A stretch of DNA of 64,000 nt from Lytechinus pictus (taxonomy: Eukaryota): NCBI RefSeq assembly GCF_037042905.1, contig NC_087245.1:17734001-17798000 (forward strand), read 5' to 3'. Positions 5,545 to 61,817 of this stretch are shown here, piece after piece. The notes under the pieces were generated by a model, which saw only the letters and a list, made by a program, of their open reading frames with translations, was not told the origin of the DNA and made no database searches. Numbering within the stretch: position 1 is the stretch's first letter; every line of letters begins with the position of its first letter. The translations under genes were made by a program, and so were the position numbers.

Positions 5545-5835
5545 AAAAATGTTGATTTGATTTGAATAAAAAGAGAAAATCAAACAAGCATAACACTTAA
5601 AATTTCATCAGAATCGGTTGTAAAATGAGAAAGTTATGACATTTTAAAGTTTTGCTTAATTTCACAAAACAGTTATACAAATACTGGTCGGTATGCAAAT
5701 GAGGAGACTGGTGATGCCATCCACTCACTATTTCTTTGTATTTTAGTATATGAAATATGTAATATTCTAATTTTCTCCTCATCGTCAAGTGAAATAACGA
5801 TTAATTACTCCCTGAACCCGTGGAATTAACATTGT
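5545..5835 (+). mobile_element. Partial copy of the Kolobok-like MITE at 35068-35650
   Basis: Shares AAATTTCATCA.AATC..TGTAAAAT..GAAAG.TATGACATT and downstream sequence with the 35068 element. Confidence 0.65.
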
Positions 5836-6750
5836 ATAGATGTGGACGTCATTGGACGAAACTGGGTCGACGGACGAACTAACGGACAATTTGGTCGAAA
5901 TGATTATGTCGGGGCACTGTGGGCAATGGTAATGGACCTGAATCAGCAAAGCCCCCCCCCCCCCCCCCAAAAAAAAAAAAAAAAAAAACGAAAGAAGGAA
6001 GGAAAGAAAAATGGGCTAAGGTAATCATTTTCAATGGGGTTTTATTGACCAAATGTCGTATATTCCCTGGAATCTTTCCGTCATCTGCCAAAAGAAAAAA
6101 AAAGACACCTTTGTTTCAAGACTCGTGAAATTTACAAACATTTTTAGGCGTAATTCATATATTCCCATGTCCCACTTTTTTAATACATTTTTTAGTTATT
6201 TATCTGCATCTTCACTTCGTTGTTGCGTTGTTTTAAGTTATACTAATTGTCTTGTTATTGTATTTCTATATCATAAAAGCCAAGTCCACCCCAATAATCA
6301 AGAAGTGGATTTGGAGAAAGTGGAGAAAAATCTCGGAGAAAAATCAAACTACTATAATTATAACGCTGCATCATGAGACGGCTATTCTGATTGGAGGTTT
6401 GCTAGGCATTTAATTAATTAAAGTTCTCATCGAGGAAAAATTCTTCATCGCGGTCAAGTGTTAAATAATGCTTGATCGAGAGCTCAATATCTCTCTAAAT
6501 TATTGTGGTGGCAGCATACTATTTTTAAAAGGTTATTTTGATAGGGTCTCGCGTTACAATAGAGACGGACACATTACCTCAAAAGGCAAATCCTTGATGG
6601 GCCTATTTAAAGTGACCCATTTTGCAAATTGCATGTCTTTTCTCTAAACACTCTGTTGGGACGGATCTGACTATTCATGAATTTGGTGGAGAAAATGTTA
6701 TGTTTCTCTTTAAAAAAAACGAAAGACAAATCAAACACACCAATCAATCA

Positions 6751-8938: not shown

Positions 8939-11935
8939 TAGACGGGTCAATTTACGACCAAAAATACCCTTACCCGGAACAAATTGCAACAAATGATCTT
9001 TCATCGGTTTTTTGTACTATTTGACCTCAGGAATAACATACTAAAAATCTACCAAAATCTGCATCCGGGACTGAGTGATTATTTTCAACATGGCGTCCAA
9101 GATGGCCGCAATTCACTGAAAATGGATACAACTGACTTATTATCCACCCTAGAATCCTATTTCGGTTAATAATCCATGGTCTAGGGGTAAAAAAATGTTG
9201 ATACAGGCTAAAGTGAATTATAGCCCCTCCAGTGTACCTGGCAAATCCAAGATGGCGCCCAAAATGGCTGCCGTAGACTGAAAATCCTCAATTCATCTAA
9301 GTGGCTTTAATTTTGTTTTTATTCAATGGTTTTTAGGGTGAAGTAGTACATTTGAACAAGTTACAAGGACAGCCAGTGGTCTAGTGTGTCCAAAAATCCA
9401 AGATGGCTTCAAAAAATGTTTAAAATGGCTGTTGATCATTAAAATGGACATAGTTCATTTCATATCCGCCTGGGACATAATGATGTGTGTGTCTATGCCA
9501 TAGTTAAATGGGTCAAATAATACATTGGGACAAGTTACAAGGAAAGTCAGTGGTCTAGTATGTGCAAAAATCCGCGATGGGTTCCAAATATTGAGTCTGA
9601 AATGGCTGCTAATACTTAAAGCGGACATAACTCATTTCATTTTGGCATGGGAGATGTGACTTCAATGTCTAAACCACTGGTTTCAAGGGTCAAATAATAC
9701 AAAAGGATAAGTTACAAGGACTGTCAGTGATCTGATATGTCCAAAAATCGAAGATGGCTTCCAAAAATTGATCTTAAAAATAGGCTGCTTATTCTTTAAG
9801 CGGACAAAGCTCATTTCATATTGGCCCGAGAGATGTGATTTTGGTATCTAAACCACAGTGGTTTCAAGGGTCAATTAATACATTAGGACAAGTTACAAGG
9901 ACAGTCAGTCGCCTGGTATTTAAAAAAACGTATGTTGGCTTCCAAAAATTAATTCTAAATTGACTGCTGTTACTTAAAGCGGGCATAGCTTATTTCATAT
10001 CGGCCTGGGATATGCGATTTTGGTGTCTAAACCACTGGTTTCAAGGGTCAAAATATTCATTAGGACAAGTTTTAAGGACAGTCAGTGGTCTGGTATGACC
10101 AAAAATCCAATATGGCTTCCAAAAATTGATTATAAAATGGCTGCTGATACTTAAAAGTGGTATAGCTCATTTTATATCCGCCTGTGATTTGATTTCGGTG
10201 TCTAAACTATGGTTTTAAGGGTCAAATCATATATTAGGACAAGTTACAATGACAGTCAGTGATCTAGTATGTCCGAAATTCCAAGATGGCTTCCAAAAAT
10301 GGAGTAAAAATATGTCTGATGTTACTAATAAAATGAGATAGTTTGTTCAATATGTGTCTGGGGAATATGAGTTCGGTGTCTAAACCATGGTTTAAAGGGC
10401 CTAGTAATACACTAGGGTTAGTTACAAGATGACTTAAAAAATGGGGTGAAACTTGACTGTTGTTACTTAAAATTATACATAGTTTATTACAAATACACCT
10501 CGGAGGTATGATTTTACTGTCTACACTAGAGTTTAAAGGGTCAAGTAATACATTGGGTTAAATTGAAAGGACAGTCAGATGTCAGGTATGTCCGAAAATT
10601 GAAGATGGCTTTAAAATTGGGGGTCTTAAATGACTGTTGTTACTTAAAATTAGATAGAGAACATTACAAATACACATTGGGGATATTATTTTGGTATCTA
10701 CACTAGGGTTTCAAGGGTAAAAAATACTTTGTGACTGGTTACCATGATATGCAGTTATCCATTTTGCCTTAAAATCCAAGTTGGCTGTAAAAATGGGTTG
10801 TAAAGTGACTGCTGTTAATTAAAAATTGACATAGTTCATACAATATCCACCTGTGAAAAATAATCTTGGTGCCTACACTTAAATGCATGGGGATAAATTA
10901 TCATATTGTTTCATGAGTTGGTCACAGCACCCATTTTGATGAAATTTTAGAATCCGCCATGGATTTTTTGGACAAAATGGAATACTAACCATCCTTATTA
11001 CTTGTCCGAATGTATCATTTGACCCTTCATACCAAAATTTAAACACCAACATTGTTTCTTACAGATAGATATTGCAGAACTCTGACCATTATTGAGTGAT
11101 ATGAATCGTTTTAGATGTCTTTTTTGAAAACCCTCTTGGACAACTGCATATCCATGTAACCAGTCCAAACGTATTATTTCAACCATGAAACCAAAGTGTG
11201 TACACCGAAATCATATCTTCTTGGTGGATTTTAAATGAACTATGTCAATTTTTAAAGTAACAGCAGTCACTTTAGACTCCGATTTTTTGGAAGCCATCTT
11301 GGAATGACGACATACTGGACCACTGACTGTCCTTGTAACTAATTTTCTGACTTTTAAAACCATGGTAAAGACATCAAAATCATATACCCTTGATGGATAT
11401 TACATGAGCTATATCCATTTGTAAATACCAGCGGCTAATTTATACTATTTTTTAAGCCACTGTGGACTTTTGAGCAAACTTGACCACCCTTCGTCCTTGT
11501 AACTTATCCCAATGTATTATTTGACAATTGAAAGCATGGTCTACACACCGAAATCATATCTCCCAGGTGGATATTATATGAGCTATGTCAATTTTAAGTA
11601 TCAACAGCCATTTTAAACTCAATTTTTGGAAGCCAGCGTGGATTTTTGGACACACCAGACCACTGGCTGTCATTGTAACTTGTACCGATGTACTACTTCA
11701 CCATCAAAACCATTGAATGAAAACAAAATTAAAGCCACTTAAGTAAGTAATAGATGAATTTTTGGTTTTTTAGCCTCCGGAAGCCATTTTGGGCGCCATC
11801 TTGGAATTTCCTGGTACCCAAGAACGCTAATATTCACTCTAACTTGTATCAATAAATTATTTTACCCACTGGAACATGGAATATGTACCTAAATAGGATT
11901 CTAGGGTGGATAATGAGTGAGTGAGTTATATCATT
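8939..11935. mobile_element. Academ-like non-autonomous element with long repeat-built inverted arms, right end truncated
   Basis: Starts TAGACGGG; about 150-180-bp tandem units containing TCCAAGATGGC on the left (9100-10850), inverted units (GCCATCTTGG) on the right; TATCCACCCTAGAATCCTATTT near 9141 mirrored near 11891-11912. Superfamily inferred from the TAG terminus. Confidence 0.6.
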
Positions 11936-19271: not shown

Positions 19272-20984
19272 TTATGAAATGGCTTCCTGAAACAAAGTAA
19301 AAAAAAAAACAAAAAAAACAGTAGTTGTGTTAGGCGAAATCCACGTGTACAATATATTGACTAACTGCATTCAACCATCACAACCGTAGAATTGCGATCT
19401 AAAAATTACTCAAACTTCAGAATGAATATCAATATATATAAATATATATAAATATATTGATATGACGTCCAAGGTAGCATCTCCGGAAATTAGGATTTAT
19501 AAGTATGAGTGCGTCCAGTCAGAAACTTGTGCTATTTTGTTTGTTTAGATACGCAATGATAAATGTTCTCAAGCTGAGAGGGTTGGACTCACTCATGCGT
19601 CAACATGATATAGTCCAGTCAATATAGGGTTTGACCCACCACTAATTGCAACACGAGATATTCCACTGCAATGCTTTCAAGGAAGGTCCCCTAAACAACA
19701 TACTAAAAGTCCCAAGAAATCCAAGCAGTGGAAATTTATGAAATTTGCATATTATGCAAATTAGCCATAAAAAGTAAGAAAAATAAGGAAAATAGCCCAA
19801 AGATTACAAATTGAGTGTCCAAAACAATTTAATTTGAGCGAAAATTCATGATAAATAACTGTATTCAATGTTTTTTGTCAAAAGTGCAAAAAAAATCTAC
19901 CTCATTTGCATAATATGCAAATAAGCATCCTTATATGGAAAAATGTGTAGGTATTGTGATTTTCTCTCATTATCTGCTTGAAAATTTCATTAATGTTGGA
20001 ATTTACATGCTGCTATTACTAAGGACGTTGAATACATTTGTATTCAGCTTAGTGTACGTCTGTAGTGTAATTTGCATATTATGCAAATAAAAGTATCTAA
20101 CATGTTATAAATATTCAAGAAAACACACTGGTGATACATCCCTCAAAAATTGCAAGTAGATTATCTATTGAAATTGGAATATGGCAATACCTTACAGGAA
20201 GGTTTCCTAAACACCATATTAAAAGTCCTTAAATATACAAGCATATGGGAAAATCACAAAATTTGCATTTTATGCAAATTAGCCATAATAAATTACAAAT
20301 AAGGAAAATAATCCAAATATTGGAAATCAAGTGCAATCAATACGAATTGAACTGAAGCCCATGACAAGTTTTACAAATTTATTTATGTTTTAAATAAAAA
20401 ATCTTAAATAAATCTACCTCATTTGCATATATATAAGCATCTTTATATGGAAAAAATGCAGAAATTTAGATTTTTCTCACAAAAACAGTTATGAAAACAT
20501 TTCAGTCTAGATCAATATGATTTGATCACTAAGAATGGGAAATACATTAATAATCAGCTTAATATCTGAAGTGTAATTTACATATTATGCAAATAAGCAT
20601 CCGACATGTTATAAATATTCAAGGAAACACATAAGTGATACTTTCCTCTAATATTCCATGTAGATTATGTGTATTAACCATGATGACCTTCCCTACACTT
20701 CTTGCTTGGTTGATATTGAGTTTTGTCACGAGCAGTTACCCCACTCATATTGTACAATGATGAGTCAATTCTACATGGATCCCACTGCTTGAATGTTTCA
20801 TTATTTCCATCCAAGTCTTGCTCTCTTCTTGACTTTGTATAGAGACTTTGCGTTTCTTGCGAGTATAGTCCACGCTAGCAACTCCTGGATTGCCAAGTGA
20901 TCAGCACAAGATGTCACACCCGTACAAATAAAAGCCCATTAGCTTCGAATATTTGGTCCTTGTAGCACACCAATTAGCTTATAA

Positions 20985-21527
20985 ACTTGGGGGCCTTGTA
21001 TTTAAAGCGCTTAACGATAAATCTCCACCCTACATCTCAGAGCTCTTATCTCAGCATAGACCAACACGCAGTCTCAGATCAGCAGCTCAAGCATTGCTGA
21101 GGGAATCTCTCAGCCACACAACCTGGGGTGACAGAGCCTTCTATATCTCTGGACCAAAGCTGTGGAATAGCCTTCCCCAATTTATCAGGATAGCAGAGAC
21201 CCAATCAACCTGGGGTGACAGAGCCTTCTACATCTCTGGACCAAAGCTGTGGAATAGCCTTCCCCAATTTATCAGGAGAGCAGAGACCCAATCAACTTTT
21301 GAGTCTTACCTGAAGACCTTTCTGTTCCCCACTCCAACATTATCCCAAGACAAGAATAACTCAATTGTAGCATTACTAGGACAGTACTTGAACTGAATGA
21401 TGATCCTAAGCACTGTTTGAAGACATTGAAATTTGTGAGATATTTCCTATTTTTGAGCAAGCGCCATGAGCGCCCAGCTAGCTGAGGCGGATACCGACGC
21501 TTTACAAGAACCCATCATCATCATCAC
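20985..21527 (+). mobile_element. 5'-truncated L2/CR1-type LINE (ORF2 C-terminus, 3'UTR, (CAT)n tail)
   Basis: LVFKALNDKSPPYISELL..RSLRS..GDRAF...GPKLWNSLP is typical of L2 ORF2 ends; in-frame 87-bp tandem duplication; tail CATCATCATCATC. Confidence 0.85.
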
Positions 21528-26403: not shown

Positions 26404-27411
26404 CAATTTAATAATTTAATTGTTCATTTTGTTCAATCTCGCGCTTAGCAAGAGGAATAGGAAGATAGTCATCATTTTTTTTAAGAAAGTCAATGCATAA
26501 CATATAATACACAATATATAAACAAATTTCAAATGTTTGGATATAAAACGGACCAATGAAAATTAAAATAATTATATACACGCGATTGATATATTGACAA
26601 TAATAAAAAGGCAGAGTAAACGACATAAAATAGACAACAGTTTATTTAAAATGAATAAACCTATGAAGCAAGAACCTCGAGAATGAATTGCTTCAAAATC
26701 TTAAAAGTTTGTTGGGCTCCCAGGGACAGGAGAAAGCAATGACGTCTATCGGTGCATGGAAAATTCATACCAAAAAATGGTTGTTGGGCCAGGCCTGGAA
26801 ATGAGACAATCCGCTGCACCCCCCCCCCCTCTCTCACACTCTGACCCTCAAACACGAACACTCTCAAAACCATCAACACAAGCACCAACCAGCCCCTCCC
26901 CTCCCCCTCCTCTCCCTCTCTGCAACAGACCCAGCCAGAAGGGTACAGCAGACTGCCTCACACCCCAACCCCGCCCAGTCATCATTTTCATATGCATGTC
27001 CTAAGGATGTCCGGTCCTATGTTAAAACTCAATGTAATAATAATATGTGATCCTTATCCACCTCACAATTTTCCTACAAAGTTTAATTCATACTTCAGTA
27101 CTTTACATATTTAAAAGAAATATTCGGGGAAACGGATAAACGATCAAAATTACCGTCTTGTCGATTTTTTTCACAACACAGTTGCTGAATTCAAAGAGCT
27201 TTGCGACCCACACCCTTTATCATGTAAGAACATCAATCTATCTGGAGGGAGATCGATTCAACTCATTCCAAGATTAGCATCAACATCAAACGATCCTGAA
27301 CCAGTTCTTTGGAAAACTCCCATCTTGGCGCCATTTTGTCTGTGTTTTACCGAAAAGAAATGGTGAGTGCTTACAAACGATCTTCTAGAGATATTTTGGA
27401 CATGATAGGCA

Positions 27412-28067: not shown

Positions 28068-28290
28068 ATACTCCCATGGATGCATCACCACCCCAAGAAA
28101 CTCCTGGTGGAGGAAGTTCGACAACTTCACCAGAACTTTCATCCAGTGGATCAACTGAAGCTTCGTCAGAACAAGCAATGACCCCAATGACAGGCTCTTC
28201 AACTACTCCATCAGAACATACGACAGACGATGCAGCGACAACTTTGTCACACCCTACAACATTCCTTCTACGGAGGCTTTACCTGAAACC
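28068..28290 (+). CDS. FReD exon 3, 5' part: mucin-like Ser/Thr stalk
   Basis: TAG acceptor, phase 1; DTPMDASPPQETPGGGSSTTSPELSSSGSTEAS...; apparent frameshift near 28260 (continues as PSTEALPET in another frame); ends at the TSD of the insertion. Confidence 0.8.
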
Positions 28291-31200
28291 TATGAGGCGC
28301 CGAATGTACCAATATTATATAGAACAATTATTTGTTATATAATCATTATTTATTAAATAATAACTATTATTTATATATAATTTACATTTTATTTGTAAAT
28401 AACTACTATTATATAAAATATCATTTCTAATTATTTATATATAATTCCAAGTAATACTTCATTATTTGTAAATAATAATAGTTCGACATTCCATTATTTA
28501 TAAATAATGATTATTTGTTTTTCATTATTTATAAATAATGATTATTTGTTTTTCATTATTTATAAATAATGATTATTTGTTTTTCATTATTTACAAATAA
28601 TGATTATTTGTTTTTCATTATTTATAAATAATGATTATTTGTTTTTCATTATTTATAAATAATGATTATTTGTTTTTCATTATTTATAAATAATTTGTTG
28701 AGTTTTCCATTATTTATAAATAATGATTATTTGTTAAATAATGAAAACGTCTACTTCATTATTTATAAATAATTTTTTCGAGTGCACCATTATTCTCATT
28801 ATTTATAAATAATCATTATTTAATGTTCGAGTTTTCCATTATTTATAAATAAAGATTATTTGTTAAATAATGAAATATCTACTTCATTATTTATAAATAA
28901 TAATTTTGTTTCAATATCCATTATTTATAAATAATCATTATTTATAAACAATTTTTACAGTTTGCCATTATATACAAATAATCATTATTTATATACAAAT
29001 AACCATTATTTATTAAATAATGCCATTATTTATTAAATAATGCCATTATTTATTAAATAATGGAAAACTCGCTATAACATGCAAATGTGGGACCGCCCAT
29101 GATATGAATATTCATGATGCGATTTCCTTTTTCGTGATTTTTCTTCACAAATTTTTGTCCATTTCCTCTTCATAATGACATTTCTTGAAGCAATTTTCTA
29201 GGGATATGGTCTGATTGTAATATTCTTCATTTTCTATATAACCTTGTCTTCGTAGAAATATCAAAAAGTGTAATTTTATACGATTTTTCCTACAGTTCAC
29301 AATCCCCATAGGCGCGCGTGTATCGTAGGGACAACCGGTGAATCGACGAAGTGCTCTTCATCGAAATACTACGTTGGTTGGTCCCCGGAAGTGGCGGGCG
29401 GAATTTAGCCCGAATCCTCGATGGAAGTCGATCAAGTGCATATGAGCTGAGAGAGTGAAATATCAGTGTACTTGTACAGGCCCTTCTACTTTTTATAAAT
29501 ATTTATTGTTGCTTTTTTTGTTAAGTTAATTTTTCCTGGTGTAGAGATAAGTTTCAGTTCTAATAATGCACTTCAAATACATTTTGGAGTGTCTGTTTGA
29601 GGCGTTTGGGGCGATTTCACCCTGGCCCCAAAATGCTCGCAACGACAATACGGGGCCATGGTGACCCCTAAATTTTTAAAAACTTATTTTTCTATTGAAA
29701 ATTATCACAAAATTCACCAAAAGTGTGCACGAAAGCCTTCGTATTTCACTTTTAAAACTCCAAAAAGTGCCCAAATGACAAGCTTGGTCGCTTCGCTGTG
29801 TCGCTTTCAACTTGAGAACGTTTACGCGTAGCTGCTTCCCCGGCCCCCACCCGGCCCCTCCTCCGAAAGAAATTCTGTATACGGCCATGCTCTAAAGAGC
29901 CTGGCACATTGATTTATGTACCGGTATACTTCATTTTCATTATTTTTATCTCATTATCATCATGGCCTTACGCAGAATTTTTTCCGGGGGGGGGGGTGGG
30001 GGAAGCAGGACGCGCGTAAACTTTCTCATAAAAATCTTAAAAAAGCGAAGCGACCAAGCTTGTCATTTGAGCTTGGCCGGTCGCCTCGCTGTCTCGCTTT
30101 CAAGATTTTTTTGAGAAACTTTACGCGCGTCCTAGCTGCTCCCCCCCCCCCCCCCCCCGGTAAAAATTCTGTGTAAGGCCATGATGATAATGTGATAAAA
30201 ATAATGAAAATGAAAAGTACATATAAATCAATGTGCCATATGCTCTTTTGAGCATGGCCGTTCACAGAATTTCTTTCGGGGGGTGGGGGCAGACGCGCGT
30301 AAACGTTCTCAAGTTGAAAGCGAGACAGCGAAGCGACCAAGCTTGTCATTTGGGCTTGGTCCCGTGGCTGTCTCGCTTTCAAGATTTTTTTGAGAAAGTT
30401 TACGCGCGTCATGCTCCGGCCCCGGCCCCCCTGGAAAAAAATTCTGCGTAAGGCCATGTTGATAATGAGATAAAAATAATGAAAATGAAGTATACATAAA
30501 TCAATGTGCCAGGCTCTTTAGAGCATGGCCGTATACAGAATTTCTTTCGGAGGAGGGGGGGGGGGGGGAAGCAGACGCGTAAACGTTCTCAAGTTGAAAG
30601 CGACACAGCGAAGCGACCAAGCTTGTCATTTGGGCACTTTTTGGAGTTTTAAAAGTGAAATACGAAGGCTTTCGTGCACACTTTTGGTAAATTTTGTGAT
30701 AATTTTCAATAGAAAAATAAGTTTTTAAAAATTTAGGGGTCACCATGGCCCCGTATTGTCGTTGCGAGCATTTTGGGGCCAGGGTGAAATCGCCCCAAAC
30801 GCCTCAAACAGACACTCCAAAATGTATTTGAAGTGCATTATTAGAACTGAAACTTATCTCTACACCAGGAAAAATTAACTTAACAAAAAAAGCAACAATA
30901 AATATTAATAAAAAGAAGAAGGGCCTGTACAAGTACACTGATATTTCACTCTCTCAGCTCATATGCACTTGATCGACTTCCATCGAGGATTCGGGCTAAA
31001 TTCCGCCCGCCACTTCCGGGGACCAACCAACGTAGTATTTCGATGAAGAGCACTTCGTCGATTCACCGGTTGTCCCTACGATACACGCGCGCCTATGGGG
31101 ATTGTGAACTGTAGGAAAAATCGTATAAAATTACACTTTTTGATATTTCTACGAAGACAAGGTTATATAGAAAATGAAGAATATTACAATCAGACCATAT

Positions 31201-32113
31201 CCCTAGAAAATTGCTTCAAGAAATGTCATTATGAAGAGGAAATGGACAAAAATTTGTGAAGAAAAATCACGAAAAAGGAAATCGCATCATGAATATTCAT
31301 ATCATGGGCGGTCCCACATTTGCATGTTATAGCGAGTTTTCCATTATTTAATAAATAATGGCATTATTTAATAAATAATGGCATTATTTAATAAATAATG
31401 GTTATTTGTATATAAATAATGATTATTTGTATATAATGGCAAACTGTAAAAATTGTTTATAAATAATGATTATTTATAAATAATGGATATTGAAACAAAA
31501 TTATTATTTATAAATAATGAAGTAGATATTTCATTATTTAACAAATAATCTTTATTTATAAATAATGGAAAACTCGAACATTAAATAATGATTATTTATA
31601 AATAATGAGAATAATGGTGCACTCGAAAAAATTATTTATAAATAATGAAGTAGACGTTTTCATTATTTAACAAATAATCATTATTTATAAATAATGGAAA
31701 ACTCAACAAATTATTTATAAATAATGAAAAACAAATAATCATTATTTATAAATAATGAAAAACAAATAATCATTATTTATAAATAATGAAAAACAAATAA
31801 TCATTATTTGTAAATAATGAAAAACAAATAATCATTATTTATAAATAATGAAAAACAAATAATCATTATTTATAAATAATGAAAAACAAATAATCATTAT
31901 TTATAAATAATGGAATGTCGAACTATTATTATTTACAAATAATGAAGTATTACTTGGAATTATATATAAATAATTAGAAATGATATTTTATATAATAGTA
32001 GTTATTTACAAATAAAATGTAAATTATATATAAATAATAGTTATTATTTAATAAATAATGATTATATAACAAATAATTGTTCTATATAATATTGGTACAT
32101 TCGGCGCCTTATA
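28291..32113. mobile_element. 3.8-kb foldback element (arms about 1.7 kb), IS3EU-like termini, inserted in FReD exon 3
   Basis: TATGAGGCGCCGAATGTACC / GGTACATTCGGCGCCTTATA; 6-bp TSD GAAACC at 28285-28290 and 32114-32119; arms nearly identical; 31-bp AT-rich tandem repeats; no coding capacity. Confidence 0.93.
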
Positions 32114-32119
32114 GAAACC

Positions 32120-32267
32120 ACAACAAAAGGAACTTCAGGTGTGAATTCGTGTAAGACGCTCTATTCAATGGGGAAGTGGTGTCTATGCCATCTCTCCTAG
32201 CGGTGTGGGACTGACCGATGTCTACTGCGATATGACCACTGAAAGCGGAGGGTGGACAATCTTCCAG
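32120..32267 (+). CDS. FReD exon 3, 3' part: start of the fibrinogen C domain
   Basis: [18 protein letters not shown], frameshift near 32174, then [31 protein letters not shown] and a CAG|GTA donor. VYCDM..GGWT.FQ is the FBG signature. Confidence 0.92.
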
Positions 32268-32780
32268 GTACGTTCTGCCAGGTTCTCGGTGTGAAATTAA
32301 TCTATCCGATGTTTATGATTTATTAAGATGGTCAATATTTTTGCTTAATCGCATCTTTTTTTCCTTTTTCTTTTCTTTTCTTTTTTAAAAAGAACTTTCG
32401 CTCTATCCACCATTTCATTCTGGCCTCTTCATCATGTTAATATAGGCCAAATAAAACAGTAAATCTTTTCAAAATGAATGAATCTTTGTTCATTTTTCTT
32501 CAAATGTTCATCATATTCATTCCATAATATTTATTTCACATTTTTGCACTTAACAACCACGTGTATCACTTGTTCTCTCTTCTACACATTCTCTCCAATC
32601 ACTCTATTTAATGACTATTGGCAATTCAATGTATGTTTGCAAGTCTCTAACAATAAAAGAAACAAACGGGAACAGCATTTCAATTAATACAACCATTTAA
32701 TAGGAATAACAGATCAAATAAATATATCATACAAATCTATTACAATTATAAGGATTAGTTCATCCTGCTAATACTACAGT

Positions 32781-34950
32781 AGGATAAATTCATCTTAATT
32801 TCAAGGCTACATGAGGATAAATTTATCCTAATTTCAAGGCTACGCAAGGATAAATTTATCCTAATTTCAAGGCTGCACGAGGATAAATTTATCTTAATTT
32901 CAAGGATACACGAGGATAAATTTATCCTAATTTCAAAGCTACATGAGGATAAATTTATCTTCGTTTCAAAGCTACATGAGGATAAATTTATCTTAATTTC
33001 AAAGCTTCACGAGGATAAATTTATCCTAATTTCAAGGCTACGCGAGGATAAATTTATCTTAATTTCAAAGCTACACGAGGATAAATTTATCTTAATTTCA
33101 AGGCTACATGAGGATAAATTTATCTTAATTTCAAAGCTACATGAGGATAAATTTATCTTAATTTCAAAGCTTCACGAGGATAAATTTATCTTAATTTCAA
33201 GGCTACACGAGGATAAATTTATCTTTATTTCAAGGATACACGAGGATAAATTTATCTTAATTTCAAGGCTTCATGAGGATAAATTTATCCTAATTTCAAG
33301 AATACACGAGGATAAATTTATCCTTATTTCAAAGCTACATGAGGATAAATTTATCTTAGTTTAAAAGCTACATGAGGATAAATTTATCTTAACTTCAAGG
33401 CTACACGAGGATAAATTTATCCTAATTTCAAGGCTACACGAGGATAAATTTATCCTAATTTCAAGGCTACATGAGGATAAATTTATCCTAATTTCAAGGC
33501 TACGCGAGGATAAATTTATCTTAATTTCAAGGTTTCATGAGGGTAAATTCATCCTAATTTCAAGAATACACGAGGATAAATTTATCCTAATTTCAAAGCT
33601 ACATGAGGATAAATTTATCTTCGTTTCAAAGCTACATGAGGATAAATTTATCTTAACTTCAATGCTACATGAGGAGAAATTTATCCGAATTTCAAGGCTA
33701 CACGAGGATAAATTTATCCTAATTTCAAGGCTACACGAGGATAAATTTATCTTAATTTCAGTCTACATGAGGATAAATTTATCCTAACTTCAAGGCAACA
33801 TGAGGATAACTTTATCTTAATTTCAAGGCTACATGAGGATAAATTTATCTTAATTTGAAAGCTACATGAGGATAAATTTATCTTAATTTCAAAGCTACAC
33901 GAGGATAAATTTATCCTAATTTCAAGGCTACACGAGGATAAATTTATCCTAATTTCAAGGCTACATGAGGATAAATTTATCCTAATTTCAAGGCTACACG
34001 AGGATAAATTTATCTTAATTTCAAAGTTACACGAGGATAAATTTATCCTAATTTCATGGCTACACGAGGATAAATTAATCTTAATTCAAGGCTTCATGAG
34101 GATAAATTTATCCTAATTTCAAAGCTACACGAGGATAAATTTATCCTAATTTCAAGGCTACACGAGGATAAATTTATCCTAATTTCAAGGCTACATGAGG
34201 ATAAATTTATCCTAATTTCAAGGCTACACGAGGATAAATTTATCTTAATTTCAAAGTTACACGAGGATAAATTTATCCTAATTTCATGGCTACACGAGGA
34301 TAAATTAATCTTAATTCAAGGCTTCATGAGGATAAATTTATCCTAATTTCAAGGCTACACGAGGATAAATTTATCTTAATTTCAGTCTACATGAGGATAA
34401 ATTTATCCAAACTTCAAGGCAACATGAGGATAAATTTATCTTAATTTCAAGGCTACATGAGGATAAATTTATCTTAATTTGAAAGCTACATGAGGATAAA
34501 TTTATCTTAATTTCAAAGCTACACGAGGATAAATTTATCCTAATTTCAAGGCTACACGAGGAAAAATTTATCCTAATTTCAAGGCTACATGAGGATAAAT
34601 TTATCCTAATTTCAAGGCTACACGAGGATAAATTTATCTTAATTTCAAAGTTACACGAGGATAAATTTATCCTAATTTCATGGCTACACGAGGATAAATT
34701 AATCTTAATTCAAGGCTTCATGAGGATAAATTTATCCTAATTTCAAGGCTACACGAGGATAAATTTATCCTAATTTCAAGGCTACATGAGGATAAATTTA
34801 TCTTGATTTTAAAGCTACACGAGGATAAATTTATCTTAATTTCAAAGCTACATGAGGATAAATTTATCTTTATTTCAAGGCTACACAAGGATAAATTTAT
34901 CTTATTTCAAAGCTACATAAGGAAAAAAATTATCTTCATTTCAAAGCCAC
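32781..34950 (+). repeat. 33-bp tandem array (GAGGATAAATTTATCYTAATTTCAARGCTACAY)n, about 65 units
   Basis: Directly visible; each unit has the 16-bp palindrome AGGATAAATTTATCCT or a one-base variant. Unit count estimated from length. Confidence 0.97.
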
Positions 34951-35067
34951 AGCAATTACACAATTCACCTTAGAATAATTTAACACTTGGTTATTTCATT
35001 GGGTGGCAAATGACATTTATGATTAAATTTGCATTGGACTTGTAGACAAGAGTAAGTTTTTCATTAA

Positions 35068-35650
35068 AGGTCAAGTCCACCCCAGGAAAATGCTGACTTG
35101 AATCAATAGAGAAAAATCAAACTAGCATAGTGCTAAAAATTTCATCAAAATCAGATGTAAAATAAGAAAGCTATGACATTTAAAGTTTCGCTTATTTTTC
35201 ACAAAACAGTAATATGCACAACTAGGTGAGTCAGTCGATGATGTCCATCACTCACTATATCTTTTTTTTTTATTGTTTGAATTATACAATATTTCATTTT
35301 TTTATAGATTTGACAATAAGGACCAACTTGACTGAACCATGGAGTATTAAACAGTGCTAATTCCACATGTTCAGGGAGGAATTAATCGTTGTACCACTTG
35401 ACAATGAGAAGAAAATTATAATATTTCATATAATAAAATACAAAAGATATAGTGAGTGGATGACGTCATGGTCACCTCATTTGCATACCCGCCAGGATGT
35501 GCATATAACTATTTCGTGAAATTAAGCTAAACTTTAAAAAGTCATAACTTTTTTATTTTACATCCAATTTTGATGAAATTTTCAGTGTTATGCTTGTTGG
35601 ATTTTTCTTGTTTTATTCAAATCAACTTTTTGTAGGGATGAACTTGTCCT
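35068..35650. mobile_element. Kolobok-like MITE
   Basis: TTAA|AGGTCAAGTCCACCCC ... GGGATGAACTTGTCCT|TTAA: TTAA TSD with purine-purine start. Confidence 0.8.
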
Positions 35651-35757
35651 TTAACTTGTGGCCTGTGGTGCATGTTCAAAATTATGTAAACAACATGTAT
35701 GTAACTATGTACCCGGGTTAACAAATTTGTAAAATAATCTGTGACAGCTCTCCTGTC

Positions 35758-35926
35758 CTGGGCGTTGTGGCTTGCGCCTGTAATCCAAGCTGTGGGGAAG
35801 TTACAAATTGATGCAGAGGTTCGAGCCCTGGTCACGTCTTTCAGATTGTGATGTTAAAGGTCGGTCCCAGACGTATATAATCATATCTGATTGATACACG
35901 TCTGACAAAACTCGAATACACACACA
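35758..35926 (+). mobile_element. Putative 7SL (SRP RNA)-derived SINE
   Basis: Head CTGGGCGTTGTGGCTTGCGCCTGTAATCCAAGCT resembles the 7SL/Alu 5' domain; B-box-like GGTTCGAGCC; (CA)n tail; 9-bp TSD TCTCCTGTC at 35749-35757 and 35927-35935. Confidence 0.75.
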
Positions 35927-36319
35927 TCTCCTGTCTTCCAGAGACTTCTCACTGTCCTTCCCAATTCAGTTGTGGTACTTCTGAGTTCTGTAATGACATT
36001 TAAGGAGAAAAAAAATATTTCAACTCTATACAGCAATTAGTTTTTGTGTCAAATTTTGAAATGCAAAGGTTTTTCATATTGTAATATGAATGATTTGTAC
36101 TGATAGTAATCAATTTTATTTACATCACATTCACTGTTAACCTTAAGATGGGCTAGCTTTTGTGGCTACTCCACGGCCAGATGGTTGTATACACGTACCC
36201 AACCCTTGCCCCCCCCCAAAAAAAAAAAAAAAAAACCTGCAGCTGAACGAGCACATAATTTCAACAATGGTAATGTGAGATGTATTCTGCAAAGCGATTT
36301 TGCTTACTTTTCTAAACTA

Positions 36320-36577
36320 AGACAAGGCATAACATAAGCGATTTTGTGTCTCGCCCACTTATGAAAATAACCAGAAATATCATGATTTGCAAGGGCACGC
36401 AACATATATAATTATTATTATAATAATTATTTATAATCAATTTTAGTATTTGTTAAATAATAACAATAACAATTTTTATCTATAAATTGTTCTTCAAAAC
36501 GGCATTTTGTAACATCACTAATCGCAGGTACGTAATGAAGCGATTGATGGGCGAGACCTATTGTATTTGCTTTGTTG
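36320..36577. mobile_element. Small element with subterminal inverted repeats (Helentron/HINE-like)
   Basis: GTCTCGCCCA near the left end and TGGGCGAGAC near the right end; ACAAGGCA / TGCTTTGT termini. Confidence 0.45.
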
Positions 36578-36945
36578 ACAAACGGATGAGAGATCTACGA
36601 GAGATCGGTCTGGTAAGAAACCTTCCATTTTTCGCCTTTTCATTAACCAATTTTGGAAACTTTCATACCCATTAGGCGTATGAAGGTGTAAAAAAAAAAA
36701 ATCAAAATCATTTACGTGATTTTTATCTTAAAAGATGGATTTCCTAGGGAAATCCATCTTTGTTTACAAGTGTCTCTTTAAATGGCAGGCGGTTCAAGGC
36801 TCTATGATGAAGAAGTATGTCAAAATATTAAAAAATTATCATCATGGTCATGGAGTCCTCAAGACTATCGACTAGGACCTACATTAAAAGTCATTATCTC
36901 ACTCACTCAGGCACACATTATCATTGAAATTTACAATATCTCACC

Positions 36946-37208
36946 TCCATCATCTCTTTGTTTAGCCGGACGGAAACGACAGGCCTGTTGTACACTTCCC
37001 CAGTCCTCTTCCATTGAGCAAGTTGCCCGTTGACTTGAAGAAACAAAGTGTGGACTCCGAGTTCATGTCCCTTTACTCGTCGCTTTCGCTCGAACTGCTT
37101 GGCTGGCTCTGCTGGGACGGCCGCGCCCGGGAGCGAGTGACCACAGACAGTGAACGAATACGGCACGACCACTACCGGTACCAGCTGAAGAAGATGAACC
37201 TCTCGTAG
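36946..37208. other. GC-rich exon-like island of unknown identity inside the giant element
   Basis: Plus strand: TTTAG acceptor then an 80-codon open frame to TAG (36966-37208). Minus strand: 116-aa ORF containing a GAG|GTGAG donor near 36945. Strand unresolved. Confidence 0.35.
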
Positions 37209-37510
37209 TTTTAACTCGTAATTAAAAATGTCAATAATAACGCGTAAGAGAACTTCAGAAGATAGAAACACTTAAACAGTAAAACGTGATCCAAAACAAA
37301 AACAATGTCGAGAAGAGCTATATTTTGGCTTAATCAAGGACAAGGTTATCGAGAGCGGTTTGTAATCAACAGATGTCATGTTGTGAAAAAACAAGTATGC
37401 GTTCGAGGACGACCGGTCCGTGGCCGTGGCAGCGGTGCGCTGTATGCATGTGCAGCGATGTGCAGCATGCGTGACACATCCCCTATTGTTAGCGAGAGCA
37501 GGGCTATTAT

Positions 37511-38099
37511 ACAAATATACAATGACACCCGAGGATCTGGCTAAAACTATTCGCATCGAAGGAACATCACATAGTACTATTCTCCCGAGGGCCATCGGCC
37601 CGAGGGAGAATAGTACTATGTGATGTTCCTGAGTGCGAATAGTTTTAGCCTGTTCCGAGAATGGGTCATTGTATATTTGTTTTATATCCCTTCCACTCAT
37701 ACCATTTTACAGCGAAACGATTTTTAATAAGTCGATATAGAACAATCGTTGAGAAGTTGAGAAAATGATAGGTCTTGCCGTATGGATCGTCTGTTCAGCG
37801 AGCGCACCTCGCCCGGTACCTGGTTAGTGCAGCTCGCCGAAAGTTTCCCGTGGCATGCAGTGGAGAGTACCGTCTGGCTGAGCAGCGCTCTGCTCGCATC
37901 GCACCGCACAGCTCGCGAATCGCGAGGTAGGGGGGGTCAAAAAAACGTATAGTTCACTTTTTCCCTAGGGAAAAAACGGACTATGCGTGACGTCAGCAAG
38001 GAAAATGAACTATTTCATGGCAAACGTTTTTCGTAGTAAAACTATTCCTTTTCTCCTTGTGTACACTCTCAATACAACGATCTTAAGTAAGGGATATAA
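37511..38099. mobile_element. Hairpin-ended non-autonomous element (Crypton- or Helentron-like, uncertain)
   Basis: 170-bp imperfect palindrome 37511-37680 with 26-bp perfect inner arms; separate 11-bp inverted repeat TTATATCCCTT (37682-37692) / AAGGGATATAA (38089-38099). Confidence 0.55.
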
Positions 38100-59934: not shown

Positions 59935-61340
59935 GAAGTTAGGATAAATTTATCCTCATGTAGACTGAAATTAAGATAAATTTATCCTCGTGGAGCCTTG
60001 AAATTAGGATGAATTTATCCTCGTGTAGCCTTGAAATTAAGATAAATTTATCCTCGTGTAGCTTTGAAGTTAGGATAAATTTATCCTCATGTAGACTGAA
60101 ATTAAGATAAATTTATCCTCGTGTAGCCTTGAAATTAGGATAAATTTATCCTCGTGTAGCTTTGAAACGAAGATAAATTTATCCTCATGTAGCTTTGAAA
60201 TTAGGATAAATTTATCCTCGTGTATTCTTGAAATTAGGATGAATTTATCCTCATGAAGCCTTGAAATTAAGATAAATTTATCCTCGTGTAGCCTTGAAAT
60301 TAGGATAAATTTATCCTCGTGTAGCCTTGAAATTAAGATAAATTTATCCTCATGTAGCTTTGAAATTAAGATGAATTTATCCTCGCGTAGCCTTGAAATT
60401 AGGATAAATTTATCCTCGTGTAGCCTTGAAATTAGGATAAATTTATCCTCATGTAGCTTTGAAATTAAGATAAATTTATCCTTGCGTAGCCTTGAAATTA
60501 GGATAAATTTATCCTCATGTAGCCTTGAAATTAGGATAAATTTATCCTCGTGTAGCCTTGAAATTAGGATAAATTTATCCTCATGAAGCCTTGAAATTAA
60601 GATAAATTTATCCTCGTGTAGCCATGAAATTAAGATAAATTTATCCTCGTGTAGCTTTGAAATTAAGATAAATTTATCCTCATGAAGCCTTGAAATTAAG
60701 ATAAATTTATCCTCGTGTAGCCATGAAATTAAGATAAATTTATCCTCGTGTAGCCATGAAATTAAGATAAATTTATCCTCGTGTAGCTTTGAAATTAAGA
60801 TAAATTTATCCTCATGTAGCCTTGAAATTAAGATAAATTTATCCTCGTGTAGCTTTGAAATTAAGATAAATTTATTCTCATGTAGCTTTCAAATTAAGAT
60901 AAATTTATCCTCATGTAGCTTTGAAATTAAGATGAATTTATCCTCGCGTAGCCTTGAAATTAGGATAAATTTATCCTCGTGAAGCTTTGAAATTAAGATA
61001 AATTTATCCTCATGTAGCTTTGAAACGAAGATAAATTTATCCTCATGTAGCTTTGAAATTAGGATAAATTTATCCTCGTGTATTCTTGAAATTAGGATAA
61101 ATTTATCCTCGCGTAGCCTTGAAATTAGGATAAATTTATCCTCATGAAGCTTTGAAATTAAGATAAATTTATCCTCATGTAGCTTTGAAACGAAGATAAA
61201 TTTATCCTCATGTAGCTTTGAAATTAGGATAAATTTATCCTCATGAAGCCTTGAAATTAAGATAAATTTATCCTCGTGTATCCTTGAAATTAGGATAAAT
61301 TTATCCTCATGTAGCTTTGAAATTAAGATAAATTTATCCT
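59935..61340 (-). repeat. Inverted 33-bp array, about 42 units
   Basis: Reverse complement of the left array unit; gives the 11-aa periodic spurious ORF at 60371. Confidence 0.97.
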
Positions 61341-61817
61341 CCTGTAGTATTAGCAGGATGAACTAATCCTTATAATTGTAATAGATTTGTATGATATATT
61401 TATTTGATCTGTTATTCCTATTAAATGGTTGTATTAATTGAAATGCTGTTCCCGTTTGTTTCTTTTATTGTTAGAGACTTGCAAACATACATTGAATTGC
61501 CAATAGTCATTAAATAGAGTGATTGGAGAGAATGTGTAGAAGAGAGAACAAGTGATACAAGTGGTTGTTAAGTGCAAAAATGTGAAATAAATATTATGGA
61601 ATGAATATGATGAACATTTGAAGAAAAATGAACAAAGATTCATTCATTTTGAAAAGATTTACTGTTATAAGTAGAATATTGTAGACTTGCTCGCTTCGCC
61701 CGCTCACAATTTTTCTGAAATATTCCAACGTATCTAAACTCAACATTCTCTTGCACGTTCACTATTCGATAATTTTTTTCACATATCACATCCTTCACAA
61801 TAATAATATGCATACAG

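Follow-up and report, generated by a model that had tools for sequence, protein, structure and literature searches.

The window, by which we mean the whole 64-kb stretch of Lytechinus pictus DNA that was analysed, is repeat-rich with a GC content of 30–43%, and it carries an angiopoietin/MFAP4-like fibrinogen-domain gene. Exons of the mapped fibrinogen-domain proteins lie at about 12.6, 13.2, 27.2, 28.1, 32.1–32.3 and 61.8–62.0 kb. The exon at 32145–32291 encodes a fibrinogen C domain and had ten protein matches, nine from L. pictus (94%) and one from L. variegatus (88%). L. pictus has at least nine closely related paralogue clusters, to which this gene (12625–62030) belongs, and the gene has frame breaks near 27314–27336 and 32176, which reflect either a pseudogene or a sequence error. 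Its long intron of about 29.5 kb (32268–61814, forward strand) was placed by protein mapping, with the donor read from the sequence and an approximate 3′ end at the edge of a tblastn match. Within this intron, in sense orientation, lies a SINE-like element of 169 nt at 35758–35926 (forward strand), which is the focus of this analysis.

The element carries both general hallmarks of SINEs, a target-site duplication (TSD) and a simple-repeat tail. The TSD consists of 9-bp direct repeats at 35749–35757 and 35927–35935 that are identical at 9/9 positions, in agreement with an earlier note made on this DNA from the sequence alone. For comparison, 192 of the 9,058 window sites (2.1%) have a chance 9-mer repeat in a similar geometry. 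At the 3′ end, an A-rich spacer leads into an A(CA)4 tail at 35918–35926 (together 35905–35926); the (CA)n tail that had been described is thus present but short. The L1 target site is TT/AAAA. The insertion target here is pyrimidine-rich and not T-rich, and the tail is A(CA)4 instead of poly(A), so the element lacks the poly(A)/L1 signature of Alu, B1 and Urop. No second copy of the element was found within the window.

The 5′ end of the element (35758–35801, forward strand) resembles the 5′ part of the Alu domain of 7SL, the signal recognition particle (SRP) RNA. In an Rfam scan of 3.5 kb (34000–37500), the match with the lowest E-value was to Metazoa_SRP (RF00017) at 35757–35852, with 25.2 bits and an E-value of 7.9e-4; the gathering score of 70 was not reached. 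The alignment of the 5′ 35 nt with the SRP Alu domain claimed in the earlier note thus reappears, below the cut-off, as a match of the first ~44 nt to the metazoan SRP model. No Rfam family attains its gathering score anywhere in the 64-kb window, and no SRP match at E ≤ 1 was found in 1–35700 or 35800–64000. Four of the nine Rfam matches in these two stretches, to miRNA and snoRNA models, have E-values of 2e-4 to 2e-3, similar to that of the SRP match. The E-value alone is therefore not decisive, and the case depends on the detail of the alignment.

Counted by eye on the Rfam alignment, identity to the SRP consensus is 27/32 columns over 35760–35791, 33/45 columns (73%) over 35757–35801 and 34/58 columns (59%) over the entire 5′ block. 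The likeness ends after about 35801, where only 1 of the following 13 columns is identical, and the first columns of the model coincide with the edge of the TSD. SINEBase asks for at least 60% identity to tRNA, 5S or 7SL over at least 60 nt. Measured against the Rfam consensus alone, the values of 73% over 45 columns and 59% over 58 columns mean that the element just misses the length in this rule, its 7SL piece being shorter than 60 nt by design. A 5′ part homologous to 7SL RNA, which defines SINE1 elements, is indicated by the sub-threshold Rfam match, by the retained structure and by the sharing of this head among three relatives (P0011, P0012 and P0013, see below).

The paired positions of the head are largely kept. 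In the RF00017 alignment, the first helix (35760–35779), for which GGGCGT/GCGCCT pairing had been proposed earlier, has 7/8 pairs, and the second helix (35784–35786 with 35796–35798) has 3/3. The UGUNR motif, read as TGTAA by the earlier note, is intact at 35779–35783. One closing pair differs from the consensus in both bases and still pairs. By eye on the same alignment, the head also retains the U-turn triad G4/U23/G24 and two loop triplets, features that have been tied to SRP9/14 binding (PMC12265939, in part). The 5-bp complementarity between the loops (GCTTG/CAAGC) is present in the sequence and its central pairs are real, but the perfect match is probably due to a change private to this copy. 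All three other head-bearing relatives have Arg where the antisense frame of 35758–35926 has Ser, which by back-translation by eye is most simply explained by the Rfam-consensus base. Because these relatives imply the consensus base at SRP column 16, the loop pairing is partly an accident of one copy. The predicted minimum free energy (MFE) of the head is no better than that of shuffled sequences (ViennaRNA, z +0.67), with a program unable to model the pseudoknot. The element lacks the 3′ half of the Alu domain, a loss overlooked in the earlier note; the 3′ part of the SRP match is poor and overlaps the Deu segment described below. A presumed A box lies near 35762–35771, as judged from the 7SL numbering in PMC7245038, where the A box spans nt 6–15.

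Alternatively, the element could be a normal Deu/Inv SINE with a tRNA head that has come to look Alu-like at its 5′ part through drift, possibly one of the Repbase SINE2 entries (e.g., SINE2-3_SP, -5_SP or -7_SP). We regard this as improbable. ARAGORN found no tRNA at the element, and no tRNA model scored at E ≤ 10 in the 3.5-kb Rfam scan. The published heads of SINE2-1_SP and SINE2-2_SP are of the tRNA type and, by eye, unlike the head of the element, which lacks the second half of the tRNA A box found in published tRNA heads. The head thus fits tRNA worse than SRP RNA, and the better tRNA match that the earlier note had named as a possible refutation did not appear in these comparisons. Whereas SINE2 elements have a tRNA-like head with both A and B boxes, tRNA likeness in this element is confined to the part containing the B box and T-arm. 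This part does give the idea of a drifted tRNA head some support, as a tRNA-like character is seen in the B box and on its 3′ side, and the spacing is also that of a tRNA. In addition, the sea urchin SINEs in the surveyed literature are all classed as tRNA-derived, and SINE2-3_SP was compared by its description, as its sequence is not among the searched supplements. Drift would nevertheless have to account for agreement with the SRP consensus in 27 of 32 columns with the right helices, and for relatives that appear to be nearer to SRP RNA and not to tRNA.

Downstream of the head, a linker that is not SRP-like (35802–35817) is followed by a tRNA T-arm-like segment at 35818–35838 (forward strand). 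It begins with a tRNA-type Pol III B box at 35818–35828, which bears out the B-box-like motif of the earlier note. This is the sole B box in the 64-kb window; as 0.53 would be expected by chance, it is weak evidence when taken alone. Together with its next ten bases, it agrees by eye with the final part of the tRNA head of SINE2-1_SP in 17/21 positions, and all 4 differences are transitions. We read this match as generic T-arm likeness; a SINE2-1_SP motif had no match at up to three mismatches. SINE2-1_SP and SINE2-2_SP are MetaSINEs with full tRNA heads and a Meta domain, and membership of the element in this group was rejected.

The tRNA-like segment overlaps with the 5′ part of a Deu/Nin (Inv/alpha-like) conserved SINE domain at 35831–35868 (forward strand). 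The start of this domain is printed in supplementary alignments of PMC4824008 (in part) and PMC7245038. We built a motif from the alignment rows of the latter, picking a gap length of 3 from the range of 1–3 in these rows. It had a single match in the 64 kb, at 35835–35857; the one mismatch falls in a CpG, and 0.02 matches would be expected even if three mismatches were allowed. Over the Deu/Nin part, 26/38 columns are identical to AmnSINE1_HS by eye. The similarity is limited to the first ~38 nt of the domain, and the 3′ region, by eye, departs from the printed Deu rows. This is short of the ~70–120 bp of the Nin domain in Nin-DC elements and of the 330 bp of the Deu domain in vertebrates, so the element is not a full DeuSINE. 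The position of the partial domain fits the description of the Inv/alpha domain, which has been reported from echinoderms and in which the head is immediately followed by the Nin domain's 5′ end; this tentative assignment is judged by that description and not by an Inv consensus.

The last module is a 3′ stem-loop at 35868–35904 (forward strand), the best-conserved part among seven relatives and a candidate recognition site for a partner LINE. None of 200 shuffled sequences was as stable (z -4.5), for a region that was picked after it had been seen in an earlier fold, and 60 of 1,308 real window stretches of similar GC content fold as well, which places it in the top 4.6%. The body had been called unrelated, a description that cannot be upheld given the tRNA-type B box, the Deu/Nin start, the hairpin and the A(CA)4 tail. 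There is no T4 run in 35793–35926, and the first downstream T5 run is at 36041. No partner-LINE match to the 3′ tail was found within the window, nor is there any likeness to the tail in a LINE-like remnant at 20932–21393. This ORF, presumably similar to the C terminus of ORF2 from a CR1/L2-type LINE, contains an 87-bp tandem duplication at 21119–21296 and has no Pfam support.

Relatives of the element were found by searching the antisense translation of 35804–35926 against 1.84 billion proteins. Ten proteins matched, three of which were also recovered in a second search. Three of the ten (P0014, P0015 and P0017) are unrelated repeat proteins and were left out. The remaining seven (P0011–P0013, P0016 and P0018–P0020) are ORFs over related elements on seven different ENA contigs, known as antisense peptides only, with 19–25 of 29 core residues identical to the query. 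Their flanks are unlike each other where visible, and Val-Cys runs occur in four of the seven at the place equivalent to the tail. The element is thus not a single-copy sequence, which was another possible refutation named in the earlier note. With its 169 nt and its relatives on seven contigs, it agrees with the basic SINEBase description of a SINE as short (<1 kb), interspersed and non-tandem (PMC3531059, in part). Repeats can be turned into spurious ORFs by gene callers. The seven public "proteins" are such ORFs over a host repeat, and a translated search can be used to locate SINE copies without a genome.

The 7SL-like head is found in three of the seven relatives (P0011, P0012 and P0013), whose matches also include the linker. 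As the head was absent from the query, this is independent evidence that head and body are linked. P0011 matches from 35926 to 35758 (33/37 and 18/22 amino acids) and diverges beyond, and this departure from the window sequence at 35758 fixes the 5′ end of the element at the TSD within one codon. P0012 and P0013 match as far as 35761, are mutually identical across the element and have different sequences past the CA tail. From these sequences, they appear to be two insertions of one young subfamily, which is 81% identical to the 35758–35926 copy in the body. They are perhaps from another species, and the divergence of this subfamily suggests that the family spans more than one urchin lineage. 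The other four relatives (P0016 and P0018–P0020) cover the tail and the Deu part only, and their matches end before the head, where truncation and frameshift are indistinguishable. Back-translation by eye places the heads of P0011–P0013 nearer to the SRP consensus than that of the 35758–35926 copy; P0011 requires a gap in the second loop, and P0012 and P0013 apparently do not have the one-base insertion of the 35758–35926 head.

Further variation was seen among the relatives. By eye, the 5′ edge of the B box in P0011 appears to contain short duplications in tandem, and P0012 and P0013 have a longer linker and a different 3′ side of the B box, marking a second subfamily. The tails of P0018 and P0019 are not (CA)n, and their antisense Leu/Val/Trp/Asn residues suggest a different microsatellite. 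To judge from these peptides, tail switching inside the family is possible.

The joins in P0011–P0013 also bear on a one-off chimera, in which a fragment of a 7SL retrocopy was fused to a SINE at a single site. There is one copy in the 64 kb, and pattern scans of contig-collection DNA gave nothing real. Exact-pattern scans found 0 loci in the viral contigs, the genome contigs and a first metagenome set, and 3 loci in a second metagenome set, all bare 20-mer matches; a search for related loci yielded four short matches, with no element among them. The scanned collections, of prokaryotic, viral or environmental origin, do not necessarily contain urchin DNA, however, and the same head and body are joined on three other contigs, with differing flanks where visible. 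We rejected the one-off chimera as highly improbable, as it is largely refuted by these joins. Among the listed sequencing runs, 20 of 24 share part of 35400–36200 (0.22–0.53), a stretch that includes another repeat, and they were not counted as evidence; none of those listed as sharing this stretch is an RNA run.

The first ~35 nt of the element resemble the 5′ end of Alu, for which the Rfam SRP consensus served as the tested proxy. This raises the question of contamination with human Alu or of an Alu fragment acquired by horizontal transfer. The likeness stops at ~45 nt, where it is fused to invertebrate SINE modules, and the element is flanked by a TSD, lies inside an urchin gene and recurs on independent contigs. 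Human contamination was rejected on these grounds, and an Alu fragment of either origin is the least credible of the explanations considered here.

The same order of modules (head, B box, Deu/Nin fragment, hairpin and tail) occurs in relatives on other contigs. We consider it likely that the element belongs to a chimeric SINE family in which the part of 7SL that binds SRP9/14 has taken the place of half of the tRNA head, and that 35758–35926 is a slightly worn copy. Of the two origins proposed in the earlier note, the second, a 7SL/tRNA hybrid SINE, fits best. Several observations count against a 7SL-derived head: the Rfam score of 25.2 against a cut-off of 70, the identity of 59% over 58 columns, the ordinary MFE fold and the missing 3′ Alu half. 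The relatives count against it as well, since they are antisense peptides and four of the seven stop matching before the head.

Such a family could have arisen when a LINE enzyme, while reverse-transcribing an older tRNA-headed SINE of the Deu/Inv type, jumped from its template to 7SL RNA. The 5′ half of the tRNA head would then have given way to the first ~45 nt of 7SL, while the B box in the T-arm stayed. A precedent has been published for DeuSINEs, whose 5S and partial-tRNA heads are attributed to a template switch (PMC4824008, in part). The hybrid would be transcribed by Pol III from the internal 7SL-derived A box and the tRNA B box ~46 nt further, with a stop at a T run in the flank, the first T5 being at 36041. 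The head of the RNA would fold as the 5′ Alu pseudoknot, bind SRP9/14 and park the RNA on ribosomes. A non-L1 LINE of the Nimb/I, CR1 or L2 type may grip the 3′ hairpin and CA tail, and insertion by target-primed reverse transcription would produce the 9-bp duplication. A stringent LINE other than L1 is suggested by the CA tail, the hairpin and a target that is not T-rich; in bivalves, Nimb, CR1 and L2 LINEs serve SINEs of this kind (PMC11481361, in part).

For the role of the head within this mechanism, we favour ribosome targeting through SRP9/14. The element would thereby behave like Alu in its head and like a Deu/Inv SINE in its body. A minimal 5′ domain of 46 nt binds SRP9/14 and supports retrotransposition, and the 3′ domain does not bind (PMC11760393, in part). 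The piece kept in the urchin element has the length of this binding domain, and the piece that is missing is the non-binding one, which argues for ribosome targeting. As a variant of the same mechanism, the head could serve as part of the promoter only, providing the A box and transcription start, with SRP9/14 binding being irrelevant to mobility. The loss of the 3′ Alu half would agree with this, as would the head of the 35758–35926 copy being more altered than those of its relatives. Moreover, a LINE partner that probably recognises the 3′ hairpin may make ribosome targeting dispensable. On the other hand, a promoter role requires just the first ~15 nt, and the retained piece equals the minimal binding domain with its triad and loop triplets. 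We therefore see a promoter-only head as unlikely, though it is the main rival.

Among known SINEs, SINE1-1_EBu of hagfish (PMC7245038) would share with the element a 7SL-derived head on an older tRNA-SINE body, a non-L1 partner and a microsatellite tail that is not poly(A). SINE1-1_EBu differs in having an Alu domain with its two halves retained (96 + 44 nt), a 7SL B box, a bipartite RTE tail, TSDs of ~17 bp and a length of 282 bp. In contrast, the urchin element has ~44 nt of 7SL, a tRNA-type B box, a Deu/Nin fragment, a 9-bp TSD and a length of 169 bp, in an invertebrate host. Alu, B1 and Tu of Euarchontoglires and Urop of shrew moles share the 5′ Alu domain with its U-turn triad and loop triplets, and 7SL units are likewise combined with tRNA units in Tu and GarnAlu (PMC13023118, in part). 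According to the same source, Alu, B1, Tu and Urop have 5′ and 3′ 7SL pieces around a deletion of ~183 nt, poly(A) and an L1 partner, none of which is seen in the urchin element. The described SINE1 lineages (Alu/B1/Tu, Urop and Ebu1-1) have both Alu-domain halves around an S-domain deletion. Without the 3′ half, the urchin element belongs to no described lineage of 7SL SINEs.

The 5S-headed DeuSINEs AmnSINE1, SINE3 and OS-SINE1 (PMC4824008 and PMC4758252, both in part) likewise have a new small-RNA head, followed by the remains of a tRNA and by a Deu domain. Their head is 5S instead of 7SL-like, and the urchin element has just ~38 nt of the Deu domain, which spans 120–330 bp elsewhere. Among sea urchin families, SINE2-3_SP, a DeuSINE listed as tRNA-derived, shares the Deu/Nin domain as far as its description goes. 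The echinoid SINE2-1_SP and SINE2-2_SP differ in the full tRNA heads and Meta domain noted above, and SINE2-1_SP resembles the element in the 3′ end of its tRNA part, near the B box. A parallel to the head alone is engineered: the mini-Alus SA46 and AY46 of Moldovan et al. contain the same ~46-nt 5′ domain, which suffices both to bind SRP9/14 and to retrotranspose in HeLa cells (PMC11760393, in part). These constructs are artificial, CMV-driven and dependent on L1 and poly(A), whereas the urchin element would be a natural, non-L1 counterpart.

SINEs derived from 7SL are restricted to supraprimates, hagfish and shrew moles according to PMC7245038 (2020) and the available parts of PMC10886601 (2024) and PMC13023118 (2026). 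The earlier note, which named mainly primates, rodents, tree shrews and hagfish, missed Urop of shrew moles (PMC13023118, in part). Described 7SL SINEs all keep both Alu-domain halves (PMC7245038; PMC13023118, in part). No invertebrate 7SL-derived SINE was found in the literature searched, which consisted mostly of listings and lay within a scope that excluded subscription journals, Repbase Reports and Dfam; the supplement of PMC5786205 gave 0 matches. Further SINE literature was consulted in part (PMC3747384, PMC5804259, PMC4455052 and PMC9783078). A prior database entry under a SINE2 or unclassified name is possible, as the urchin families whose heads were compared are SINE2-1_SP and SINE2-2_SP. 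On balance, we lean slightly towards a SINE with a 7SL head having arisen independently outside vertebrates, and towards this family being the first natural one that keeps only the ~46-nt SRP9/14-binding domain, which it combines with the B box of a tRNA, part of a Deu/Nin domain and a tail of non-L1 type.

If this is true, ribosome targeting through SRP9/14 would be a module that can be moved between elements and that raises retrotransposition whichever LINE is the partner. With the 5′ domain only, a family in sea urchins would be a further independent origin, and the first from an invertebrate in the literature searched. It would also be a natural test of whether 46 nt suffice for Alu jumping (PMC11760393, in part). 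The copies would show, by sequence alone, whether selection maintains the SRP9/14 fold with a non-L1 partner. Lytechinus is an established laboratory model genus, so SRP9/14 binding and expression are directly testable.

Several other repeats surround the element. A palindromic MITE-like element of ~590 bp (35064–35654), with arms of 181 nt that are 73% complementary, ends ~100 bp upstream of the SINE, and a partial copy of it lies at 5557–5838. The intron between two exons of the fibrinogen gene is occupied by a near-perfect inverted repeat of 3.8 kb (28290–32114; 94.6% self-match), which is either foldback-like or an assembly artefact. A degenerate tandem array of ~180-bp units with one inverted block is found at 9131–11922. 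Downstream of the SINE, no homologue was found for the ORF at 36966–37205, and a compact palindromic element with arms that are 89–94% complementary lies at 37500–37691. Near the two ends of the host intron, at 32783–34973 and 60070–61362, lie two long minisatellite arrays in opposite orientation, whose 33-bp unit (11 codons) gives rise to long spurious ORFs.
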